Source: a virus
IMG/VR virus record: IMGVR_UViG_3300019850_000189
Coordinates: 32,001-96,000 of that record
Strand: one strand, 5' to 3'
Length of the DNA: 64,000 nucleotides
Shown: positions 51,193 through 61,122 of the stretch, piece after piece
Layout: each line of letters opens with the position of its first letter
Numbering within the stretch: position 1 is the first letter of the stretch
The notes under the pieces: model-generated
Seen by the model: the letters and a program-made list of their open reading frames with translations, nothing else
The model's database searches: none
What the model was told of the DNA's origin: nothing
Made by a program: the position numbers and the translations under genes

Positions 51193-51427
51193 ATGGGCAG
51201 GTTCCGTTATAATGCACTAGCAGAGGAATAAGCGCGGCGGTTCGGAAAGACGAACTTAGATTATCAGGTGACTGCCGGCAATAGTTCGGCGCGCCATCTA
51301 ATGCGAGGTTTAATTTAAAACCTCATCACGGCGATTTAATTGATTTAGGCCTGTGGCTGCGAATGCCAATAATCGAAACCAATAGAGATCGCAAAGCGAA
51401 TAATCCGTTGGAAGTCCGCCTGCCCAT
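51193..51427 (+). ncRNA. Candidate structured ncRNA of unknown family (~235 nt)
   Basis: Perfect 9-bp terminal helix atgggcagg/cctgcccat; several internal hairpins, including a GAAA loop; GC-rich; CATATATA motif immediately upstream. Confidence 0.55.
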
Positions 51428-55214: not shown

Positions 55215-56036
55215 GGCTTGACACGGATAGCATGTCGCAAGGCATGTAAAGGCGGCTTGGCAACCGCCACCGATCGCAAGATCGGCCAATTCAAACAAGC
55301 TGACATCCCTATGGCTTCGCATGCCTGCGGAGCTTGCACCGACATTGGACGAAGACAGCATAGACTGAGGGTAACACTGTAAGCTTATGTTTCTCGTGGA
55401 AAGGATTATTCGTAACCATAACCAATTAGATGTTAGGATGAACAGTAGTTATATTGTCTGAGCTTTTGCCAGCAAGGGCTTTATAGCAGTTTGATAGGTT
55501 GGTGGACATCCAGTACACCGGTCTTGAAAGACGGTTTAGTATCCGGCAGGAGAAAGACAGACAGCGTCCGGCATTTTGTAGGTCAAAAGCCTATGAAACT
55601 GGTGGATCAGCGCGTTGTCGCTATGGGGAGACCCATTTTTCAATGATAGCTCAAAGGTAGAGCACATGTCTTAGAAACACATTATGCTGTTGGTTCAACT
55701 CCAACTCATTGGCTTTATCCGCAAAGACTGGTCCGGTATTGAGTGAAAGCAGCTTAATTCCATGCCCTTCGGGAACATGGACTTTCCGAGGCTCGCAAGG
55801 CTAAAGAAAGTTAGTTGTAAGAAGCACGGCGAGGTTAGCGCCTCCTTATAGCTCGCAAGGCTGACGGTATTCTGAGAACTGAGTAGCTCAATGCGTCACT
55901 GGAAATGCCGCCAGTATAAAAAGGCAGTTGTGTTGATTTACCGTTCCTGGAACGGTGGATAAGTTCTTAAGGCCCGGTTAGCGGCCGAGCTGTACGAGGG
56001 CAAAAGGATTGACATATAGAGTTGTAGTCTCAGGCT
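55215..56036 (+). ncRNA. GOLLD-like giant ncRNA (~820 nt)
   Basis: ORF-free GC-rich stretch in a tRNA array; ends pair (ggcttga/tcaggct); many GNRA hairpins (gatcgcaagatc, ctcgcaagg twice, tcttgaaaga); 3' GAGTTGTAGTCTC; embedded tRNA. Family assigned from recalled characteristics. Confidence 0.65.
55640..55713 (+). tRNA. tRNA-like element (Leu TAG anticodon) embedded in the GOLLD-like RNA
   Basis: tcaatga/tcattgg acceptor; gctc/gagc D-stem; gttgg-ttcaact-ccaac T-arm; only 3 bp in the anticodon stem; short variable loop. Confidence 0.6.
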
Positions 56037-60256: not shown

Positions 60257-60541
60257 TCAAAAGAAACTATTAATGAAGATCTTATAAAAAGCGGCAACTG
60301 AGATTGTTAAATCTCTTTATAGAGGTCAAATAAAAGAAAAAGGATTTGTGAAAATTAAGGAGCTTAGATGCATATTGTAATAAATGTTTTAATGATTTTC
60401 GGATTGCTTGGTGTATTATGCCTTGAGTCAATTTATGTAGATGTCATGTGGGACAAAATTGACAGGTGGTCAGAAGACCGTAAAAGAGTGGGCAGGAACT
60501 TGATTGCCAGGAAGTTCAAACGGCATTAGATTCTGTGTTTA

Positions 60542-60613
60542 GCGCGCGTAGTTCAATGGTAGAACAGCGTCCTTATAAGGCGTAATTTCCCCGTCCAAAT
60601 CGGGGCGTGCGCA
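60542..60613 (+). tRNA. tRNA-Ile(TAT), C55
   Basis: gcgcgcg/cgtgcgc; gcgtc-ctTATaa-ggcgt; T-loop TCCAAAT. Confidence 0.85.
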
Positions 60614-60626
60614 AGATGAGTGATAT

Positions 60627-60863
60627 AGTTTGACGGTTCCGGTTCTACGCTGTATATGATAACATATATAGAGGAAACACCGAACATCTCTGCTCTAATG
60701 CAGGAGGCGAAAGCTGTTTGGACTGCAGAGGATGCGACCACAAATAACTCTAGGTGGTGAGCAGGCCAATGATGAGATGGTAGTGGGCAGCTGAAAAGCC
60801 AGTTGAAAAAACTGAGATAGATGTAGAACAAAAACAGAATTCGGGTTATAGGAACCGTCAACT
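60627..60863 (+). ncRNA. rnpB: Compact RNase P RNA
   Basis: P1 ttgacggttcc/ggaaccgtcaa; P2 gttctac/gtagaac; P3 hairpin; CR-I-like GAGGAAACACCGAAC; CR-IV-like GAGCAGGCCAA; CR-V-like ACAGAATTCGGGTTA. Confidence 0.8.
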
Positions 60864-60879
60864 TAATATAGCATAAGGA

Positions 60880-61122
60880 GTGAAAATGTCTTTAGAAGAT
60901 GAAATTGTCGAGCATCTTAAACAGGACTTCACGGGTCATGAATTTAGTATTACAACCCAAGGCGATGTGAGAAATATACTTATGGATGGTGTGTCTTGTT
61001 TGACCTATGATGATATACAGATTGACTCCCTTAAAAAATCTTATTCTGCAGCAGCTGAAATGGCATTTGATGAGTTTTATGGCCTGATAGAGCAATCAGT
61101 TAAAATGGTTCTGAATAAATGA
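60880..61122 (+). CDS. Hypothetical acidic protein
   Basis: AAGGAG SD. Confidence 0.65.
   Translation: MKMSLEDEIVEHLKQDFTGHEFSITTQGDVRNILMDGVSCLTYDDIQIDSLKKSYSAAAEMAFDEFYGLIEQSVKMVLNK

Follow-up and report, generated by a model that had tools for sequence, protein, structure and literature searches.

Of the two universal ribozymes, one is RNase P RNA, which trims newly made tRNAs. The question raised by the locus described here is whether a short RNA encoded in the tRNA array of a large phage is an RNase P RNA that has lost the domain which reads the tRNA elbow, and whether this loss is matched to unusual T-loops in the tRNAs of the same phage, as was originally predicted. We analyzed a 64,000-nucleotide stretch (hereafter the window), which comprises bases 32001-96000 of a 189,375-bp IMG/VR record with a CheckV completeness estimate of 79%. 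The window contains 28 tRNA genes and a GOLLD RNA, and a T4-type major capsid gene (Gp23, E 5.5e-73) is present in the phage record.

Identity and Architecture of the RNA

A search with RNase P models had been proposed together with the original prediction as a way to check it. When the window was searched by cmscan under an E-value threshold, the bacterial type A model (RF00010, RNaseP_bact_a) matched positions 60631-60864 of the plus strand from end to end (model positions 1-367; 62.7 bits, E 7.6e-19). It was the sole match to this model over the whole 189-kb record (E 6.8e-20). At the Rfam gathering threshold, cmscan reported no RNase P RNA in the window. The gathering score of RF00010 is 100 bits, and the window RNA falls short of this cut-off because the specificity domain (model positions ~75-215) is skipped in the alignment. 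RNase P RNA genes of this kind are missed by annotation at Rfam's curated threshold. Identity as an archaeal type T or a bacterial type B RNA was also considered and rejected, since neither the type T model (RF02357) nor the type B model (RF00011) matched the window RNA at E <= 10.

From the 5' strand to the 3' strand of P1, the miniature gene spans 60630..60861 on the plus strand (232 nt), an assignment based on RF00010, covariation in seven relatives and standard pairing throughout. All 71 assigned pairs (P1-P6, the stub, P15, P16, P17, and two P18-like hairpins) are standard in the window sequence, and the single-sequence fold of the RNA has a z-score of -3.98. We found P1-P6, P15-P17, the GGU of L15, J18/2, CR-I, CR-IV, and CR-V, and we found no CR-II- or CR-III-like motifs in the window RNA, in which P7-P14 are replaced by a 34-nt stub. 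Of these conserved regions, CR-I, CR-IV, and CR-V are parts of the catalytic domain, and the specificity domain contains CR-II and CR-III (PMC4919922). Judged from its sequence, the locus is a real gene for an RNase P RNA of bacterial type A descent that has been cut down to the catalytic domain.

All elements of the RNA are encoded on the plus strand. P1 pairs 60630-60640 with 60851-60861 (11 bp), and each of its 11 pairs changes on both sides among relatives. P2 (60642-60648 with 60823-60829, 7 bp) shows compensatory changes at five of seven pairs, and the P3 hairpin (60650..60671, 9 bp, loop AUAA) shows them at four of nine. P4 is built from CR-I (GAGGAAAGUCCG-type) and CR-V (ACAGAAnnCGGnUUA-type), and both motifs are there: CR-I, which includes J3-4 and the 5' strand of P4 (GAGGAAACACCGAAC), lies at 60671..60685, and CR-V with the 3' strand of P4 (ACAGAAUUCGGGUUA) lies at 60834..60848, each placed by the RF00010 alignment and by standard pairs. 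Eight standard pairs make up P4 (60676-60678 with 60845-60847, and 60680-60684 with 60840-60844). P5 joins 60685-60689 to 60730-60734, with 94% of alignment cells paired and compensatory changes at three of five pairs. The P6 pseudoknot is formed by CUGCUC (60690-60695) and GAGCAG (60759-60764), the latter located in L17; again 94% of cells are paired, and four of six pairs change on both sides.

The stub (60696..60729) has a 5-bp stem (60699-60703 with 60723-60727) and, as read from the sequence, a GC-GAAA-GC hairpin (60707-60714). Its internal loop is asymmetric, with GAG on the 5' side versus UGUUUGGA on the 3' side, and is conserved across the subfamily. The G of the tetraloop is replaced by A in a sister strain, and therefore the tetraloop itself is not conserved. 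The CR-IV-like J5/15, together with the 5' strand of P15 (GCGACCACAAAUAA), is located at 60734..60747, 19 nt beyond the GC-GAAA-GC hairpin. The P15-P16-P17 arm (60738..60786) was assigned by the RF00010 alignment, covariation and standard pairs. It consists of P15 (60738-60741 with 60783-60786), P16 (60748-60750 with 60774-60776), and P17 (60753-60755 with 60765-60767). The GGU of L15 (60779-60781, RF00010 alignment), which is the 3'-CCA binding site of type A RNAs, is retained. Two small hairpins with standard pairs, GCU-GAAA-AGC and CAGUU-GAAAA-AACUG, are present at the P18 position (60790..60814), followed by the conserved joining strand J18/2 (AGAUAGAU, 60815..60822, RF00010 alignment). 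In bacterial RNase P, J18/2 touches the 5' leader of the substrate (PMC13254310).

These features bear out much of what had been predicted. The signature strands of P1, P2, P3, and P4, noticed earlier in this short RNA, are confirmed by the RF00010 match, the standard pairs and covariation, and the gap between the GC-GAAA-GC hairpin and the CR-IV-like motif is indeed short. The view that the phage encodes an RNase P RNA homologue pared down to the catalytic domain, comparable to the archaeal type of Pyrobaculum, is supported as well.

The catalytic core of the window RNA has several altered bases. The pair equivalent to G68-C358 of Escherichia coli is C-G, the position of the bulged U69 is occupied by A (60679), and the position of A248 in J5/15 is occupied by G (60736). 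To our knowledge, the bulged uridine of P4 (U69 in E. coli) and the J5/15 base A248 are universally conserved in bacterial class A RNase P RNA. Among the 22 RNAs compared, only the window RNA has A at position 69, and the other 21 reduced RNAs have U. The sister strain carries the same A, which indicates that A69 is genuine. The A69 and G248 deviations are peculiar to the window copy or its subfamily.

Within the stub-only subfamily, P18-position hairpins were observed in the window RNA, L057, and L037 only. These three RNAs, which have the shortest stub hairpin, carry one or two such hairpins capped by GNRA loops, and the stub hairpin is long in the four RNAs that lack P18 (L050, L053, L038, and L051). 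The P18-position loops might dock at the conserved internal loop of the stub (5' GAG versus 3' YGUUNNNA).

Relatives in Other Phages and Genomic Context

A gapped pattern of the CR-I and CR-V core was scanned over viral contigs; by a rough estimate, fewer than one chance match is expected per scan. This pattern yielded 14 loci, all of which fold as reduced RNase P RNAs of 179-275 nt, and a subfamily-specific pattern yielded eight further loci in metagenome contigs. The exact CR-I 15-mer was also tried on viral contigs and was discarded, as it gave chance matches only, mostly in 5' UTRs of capsid genes. Six relatives (L037, L057, L050, L053, L038, and L051) share the architecture of the window RNA, including the stub and the C-G pair at 68-358. 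In the pattern-neutral viral hits, position 68 is C where position 358 is G and G where it is C, and positions 73/74 are complementary to 353/354 in every hit.

Covariation was assessed by counting pairs on a plain MAFFT alignment of the seven stub-type RNAs, using a structure that includes both pseudoknots. Among these RNAs, the share of paired cells is 91.7%, and two-sided changes are seen at 42 of the 71 pairs, including pairs in the P4 and P6 pseudoknots. None of 500 shuffles reached the observed pairing and compensation, and 33-42% of cells were paired in slid controls. RNAalifold independently found P1, P5, the stub stem, and P16/17 in the same seven-sequence alignment. The sister strain, which comes from a biofilm metagenome, differs from the window at 3 of 234 RNA positions versus ~4% in both flanks. 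One of these changes, G to A at 60765, converts a U.G pair of P17 into U-A.

About 20 reduced RNase P RNAs were detected in large-phage contigs, nearly all of them within tRNA arrays. The examined flanks of reduced RNAs contain 227 tRNAs, with up to 29 per locus. The carrier contigs are 114-203 kb in length, and as many as 66 tRNAs occur in one genome. In each of five other carrier genomes there is exactly one significant RNase P match (50-118 bits), and no T4-type capsid gene was found in these five genomes; the carriers are therefore diverse phages. As in the other carriers, the RNA of the window is a reduced type A RNA that is encoded by phage DNA and located in or near a tRNA array.

Cultured phages also carry RNAs of this kind. 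BLAST analysis with L048 detected an unannotated gap between two tRNA genes in Microbacterium phage A3Wally, which contains an RNase P RNA (MZ150783.1, 93852-94072; RF00010 72 bits, E 5.3e-22). Copies that are ~91% identical were found in Zooman, Big4, and a fourth M. foliorum phage. The RNA lies between two tRNA genes and is unannotated in all four cultured Microbacterium phages, so that the question of its function can be tested at the bench. The Microbacterium phage RNAs belong to a reduced class different from that of the window RNA. Cultured phages searched by BLAST with the window RNA, L057, and L053 as queries gave no matches. In the GenBank record of A3Wally (MZ150783.1, 87859-100061), many tRNA product names disagree with the bracketed triplet if the latter is read as the anticodon. 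For example, ARAGORN identifies the genes named tRNA-Pro(ccg) and tRNA-Pro(cct) as tRNA-Arg(ccg) and tRNA-Arg(cct), and they are annotated as Arg in sister phages.

Short RNase P RNAs were also seen on contigs filed under cellular organisms. Type A RNAs that apparently lack most or all of the S-domain are present in L073 (7603-7778), L066 (525-702), and L097 (1214-1401), whose contigs are filed as a Rhizobiales MAG, a deltaproteobacterial MAG, and a Pseudomonas isolate, respectively, with no N-masking at the gap. Possible explanations are prophages, phage DNA binned with the wrong organism, faulty assembly, or genuine cellular cases. In addition, archaeal DPANN contigs ('Iainarchaeum' and related; L061, L063, L074, L077-L079, L082, L084, L089, and L094) have short RNase P RNAs with a CCGCCC...GGCGG variant of P4, in which CR-II/III-like motifs are kept.

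In the window, the RNA is located directly behind a tRNA-Ile(UAU) gene (60542..60613, plus strand; ARAGORN, Rfam tRNA 60.2 bits), whose T-loop UCCAAAU has C55. The RNA had been placed 14 nt after this tRNA. Its position directly behind tRNA-Ile is correct, but the spacer between the end of the tRNA at 60613 and the start of P1 at 60630 is 16 nt, and the start given earlier (60627) falls in a possible weak extension of P1. Co-transcription of the two genes, also predicted, is plausible. A promoter-like site (TTGCCA-17-TAGATT, 9/12 by consensus scan; 60504..60532, plus strand) lies upstream of tRNA-Ile and is a possible start of a transcript that would cover the tRNA, the RNase P RNA and an ORF behind it, and no terminator-like site was seen upstream of 61241, the next one being located beyond that ORF. 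However, these sites are consensus matches only, and the promoter signal is weak (10 promoter-like sites versus 7.0 expected in shuffles).

The ORF in question encodes an acidic protein of 78 amino acids (60886..61122, plus strand). It follows an AAGGAG site, begins 25 nt past the RNA, and is probably part of the same transcript. This ORF and four other neighboring ORFs matched no Pfam or PHROG family, no relatives were found for them (for the 78-amino-acid ORF, in viral contigs), and they were rejected as candidate protein cofactors on these grounds. A gene for RnpA (PF00825) was not found in the phage record, although this is 79% complete and a cofactor gene could be located in the remainder. 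Nor was one found in the records of five other carriers, one of them 96% complete.

Several other features of the record concern tRNA maturation or structured RNAs. None of the tRNA genes of the window encodes CCA. A gene for a PolyA_pol-family nucleotidyltransferase (PF01743, E 7e-41) is located outside the window at 183669-184025 of the same record; it probably encodes a CCA-adding enzyme, which fits tRNA genes that lack an encoded CCA. The GOLLD RNA (RF02032, 162.6 bits; 55559-56036) belongs to the same tRNA island and lies 4.6 kb upstream of the RNase P RNA. Its linker contains a tRNA-like element (55640-55713), which is tRNA-Leu(tag) according to ARAGORN. A further structured RNA of ~230 nt (51193-51427) between tRNA-Asn and tRNA-Thr showed no RNase P match at E <= 10, no CR-II/III motifs and only a chance snoRNA match. 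A split enzyme whose S-domain is supplied in trans by this RNA was therefore rejected, given the lack of similarity and the single RF00010 match in the record.

T-Loops, Proposed Function, and Competing Explanations

The non-canonical T-loops (C55, A54, and C54) noted in the original prediction are real. T-loops other than TTC occur in 8 of the 28 tRNAs of the window (TCC in five, ATC in two, and CTC in one), and C56 is kept in all 28. We grouped the carriers by their remaining CR-II/III-like motifs and counted non-TTC T-loops among the nearby tRNAs. Beside stub-only RNAs, the proportion is 8/28 in the window and 2/16 in other phages, with 0/5 in the phage of L037, the closest architectural relative. 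It is 2/88 in the second class without CR-II/III, which includes A3Wally, 18/67 where CR-II/III-like motifs are kept, and 13/85 for larger, unclassified reduced RNAs. The most deviant set of T-loops (L047, 17/27 alone) is found beside an RNA with CR-II/III-like motifs. T-loop deviance does not track specificity-domain loss across carriers, and the proposed match between the two is not borne out by this comparison between phages.

Other peculiarities of the window tRNAs were observed. Seven tRNAs between 46638 and 63694 have C at position 33 in the anticodon loops given by ARAGORN. A U1.G72 wobble is found at the start of five tRNAs (Leu-tag, Gln-ctg, Ser-tga, Ser-cga, and Ser-gga), and two (Glu-ctc and Trp) have G1.U72. 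Weak +1/72 pairs matter to the choice of cleavage site by an enzyme without the elbow ruler. The N(-1) base of the window tRNAs is A in 16, T in 6, C in 4, and G in 2. Co-variation between the leader and J5/15 was considered and rejected, as no complementarity was seen between N(-1) and the G that stands in place of A248.

On balance, we consider it likely that the gene encodes a catalytic-domain-only RNase P RNA which uses host RnpA to mature the phage tRNAs. The RNA would be part of the transcript of the phage tRNA array, immediately following tRNA-Ile(UAU), and would fold into a core of P1-P6 and P15-P17. It would then assemble with the RnpA protein of the host, which is proposed because no phage rnpA was found, and would cleave the 5' leaders of ~28 phage pre-tRNAs. 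To recognize its substrates, the RNA would depend solely on contacts made by the catalytic domain with the acceptor stem, with the leader via J18/2 and RnpA, and, after CCA addition, with the 3'-CCA via the GGU of L15. The elbow 'ruler' contact of the specificity domain is missing. The benefit to the phage would be extra or shut-off-proof tRNA-processing capacity in infection, rather than a fit to odd T-loops. Published work has established that the S-domain binds the D/T-loop elbow; the bacterial C-domain on its own still cleaves pre-tRNA, whether RnpA is present or not, at a lower rate and with lower affinity (PMC4919922).

A 2026 cryo-EM study of Geobacillus stearothermophilus RNase P described six substrate contacts: stacking of the elbow on the S-domain, the T-arm's minor groove, pairing of L15 with CCA, pairing of the leader with J18/2, the bulged P4 uridine contacting the acceptor stem, and the J5/15 adenine stacked on the acceptor end (PMC13254310). 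In the window RNA, the elbow and T-arm contacts are gone, L15 and J18/2 are kept, and the bases of the last two contacts are changed. Because A69 and G248 occupy the positions that contact the acceptor stem, the window copy could be a weaker catalyst; there is some chance, although a small one, that it is indeed weaker or serves partly as a sponge for RnpA. It is also conceivable, but in our view doubtful, that large phages have an elbow-blind RNase P of their own which works without host RnpA, either alone or with an unrecognized phage protein. Such an enzyme would let phage tRNAs mature, those with altered elbows (C55) or weak +1/72 pairs among them, even if the host enzyme were shut off, saturated or incapable of handling them, and would form a private maturation channel together with the CCA-adding enzyme.

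Several other explanations were weighed against maturation of phage tRNAs with host RnpA. In the co-evolved private system that was originally proposed, the S-domain was lost as the host enzyme handles aberrant elbows (C55, A54, and C54) poorly, and the phage enzyme became specialized. The location of the RNA directly behind one of the eight non-TTC tRNAs (of 28) in the window, as well as the abundance of deviant T-loops in some other carriers such as L047 (17/27), would agree with this idea. However, the other stub-only carriers (2/16), the closest relative (0/5), and the second class lacking CR-II/III (2/88) do not show the same trend, and the RNA of L047 retains CR-II/III-like motifs. Moreover, the S-domain recognizes the elbow through stacking on the pair G19:C56 (in the tRNA studied, numbered G18 and C55) without reading positions 54/55 (PMC13254310), C56 is kept in 28/28 tRNAs of the window, and the 20 canonical tRNAs among the 28 need processing too. 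We regard such a system as quite improbable. A role as a decoy, in which a poor or inactive catalyst acts mainly by drawing RnpA away from the RNase P RNA of the host, or by modulating the processing of host tRNAs, also appears unlikely to us. A pure protein sponge would need neither the P4 core nor the L15 GGU and J18/2, all of which are conserved family-wide, and the carrier phages, in whose tRNA arrays the RNAs are situated, require maturation of tRNAs of their own. On the other hand, the absence of a detected phage rnpA means that the RNA, should it rely on a protein, has to compete for that of the host, and the A and G at the U69 and A248 positions of the window copy would also be in line with a decoy.

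The possibility that the RNase P acts alone or with an unrecognized phage protein, or mainly on non-tRNA phage RNAs such as the tRNA-like module of GOLLD or other RNAs of the array, has only a slim likelihood. Bacterial RNase P is known to cut non-tRNA substrates also (PMC4919922), the GOLLD RNA with its embedded tRNA-like element is 4.6 kb upstream, and small ORFs without an assigned family flank the gene. Yet no specific link between the RNA and GOLLD was found, most carriers are beside plain tRNA arrays, and the downstream ORF is acidic and without relatives, unlike the basic RnpA. Finally, the score under the Rfam cut-off and the two changed core bases would be compatible with a decaying, functionless relic of a captured host rnpB gene, but covariation is strong across distant relatives, sister-strain divergence is lower in the RNA than in its flanks, with one change preserving a pair, and the architecture is seen again in phages that are not related, with no T4-type capsid gene in five other carriers. 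Homology, covariation and sister-strain constraint together rule out chance and make a relic unlikely; we give it the very lowest probability among these explanations.

Comparison with Known Systems

The window RNA resembles bacterial type A RNase P RNA (E. coli M1 RNA/rnpB, Thermotoga maritima) in its catalytic domain, including the P4 and P6 pseudoknots. It differs from type A RNAs in length (232 nt versus 340-420), in the 34-nt stub in place of P7-P14, in the C-G at the G68-C358 pair, and in A69 and G248. It is also phage-encoded within a tRNA array and has no linked rnpA. Reduced cellular RNAs on contigs of lineages with small genomes (Elusimicrobia, Patescibacteria, and DPANN archaea) have a similarly short distance between CR-I and CR-V; however, those inspected keep the core that reads the elbow, with CR-II/CR-III-like motifs (ACAGAAAC and GUGAAA-type), whereas the window subfamily has none.

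A literature search, subscription journals excepted, revealed no paper on a phage or viral RNase P RNA besides the inactive RNA of camelpox virus. The latter is a eukaryotic-virus RNA with an RNase P-like secondary structure that is reported to be inactive in pre-tRNA processing (PMC3001073). Its resemblance to RNase P is weak, whereas the phage RNA has the full conserved catalytic core. Natural RNAs of bacterial type that consist of the catalytic domain only would reveal the minimal working enzyme in vivo, and the choice of substrates without the elbow 'ruler' would become visible. Phages with large tRNA sets would be seen to bring tRNA-processing machinery as well. Specific to the copy studied here are the A69 and G248 changes and the negative outcome on T-loop co-evolution.

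Pyrobaculum-type RNase P RNA works with several archaeal proteins. Like this minimal RNA (type T/P), the window RNA keeps the catalytic domain and has lost nearly all of the specificity domain, and by analogy it probably works in the same way (for the Pyrobaculum RNA see Lai et al. 2010, as cited in PMC4919922). Unlike the Pyrobaculum type, it does not match RF02357 and has the bacterial P6 and P15-P17/L15 features, pointing to independent reduction. In content, being the C-domain alone, it is the same as engineered C-domain-only bacterial ribozymes. According to the account in PMC4919922 (its refs 75-77), engineered C-domains cleave pre-tRNA with or without RnpA, more slowly and with lower affinity; a catalytic-domain-only design can therefore work. 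In contrast to these laboratory truncations, the window RNA is a natural conserved gene with a conserved stub loop of its own.
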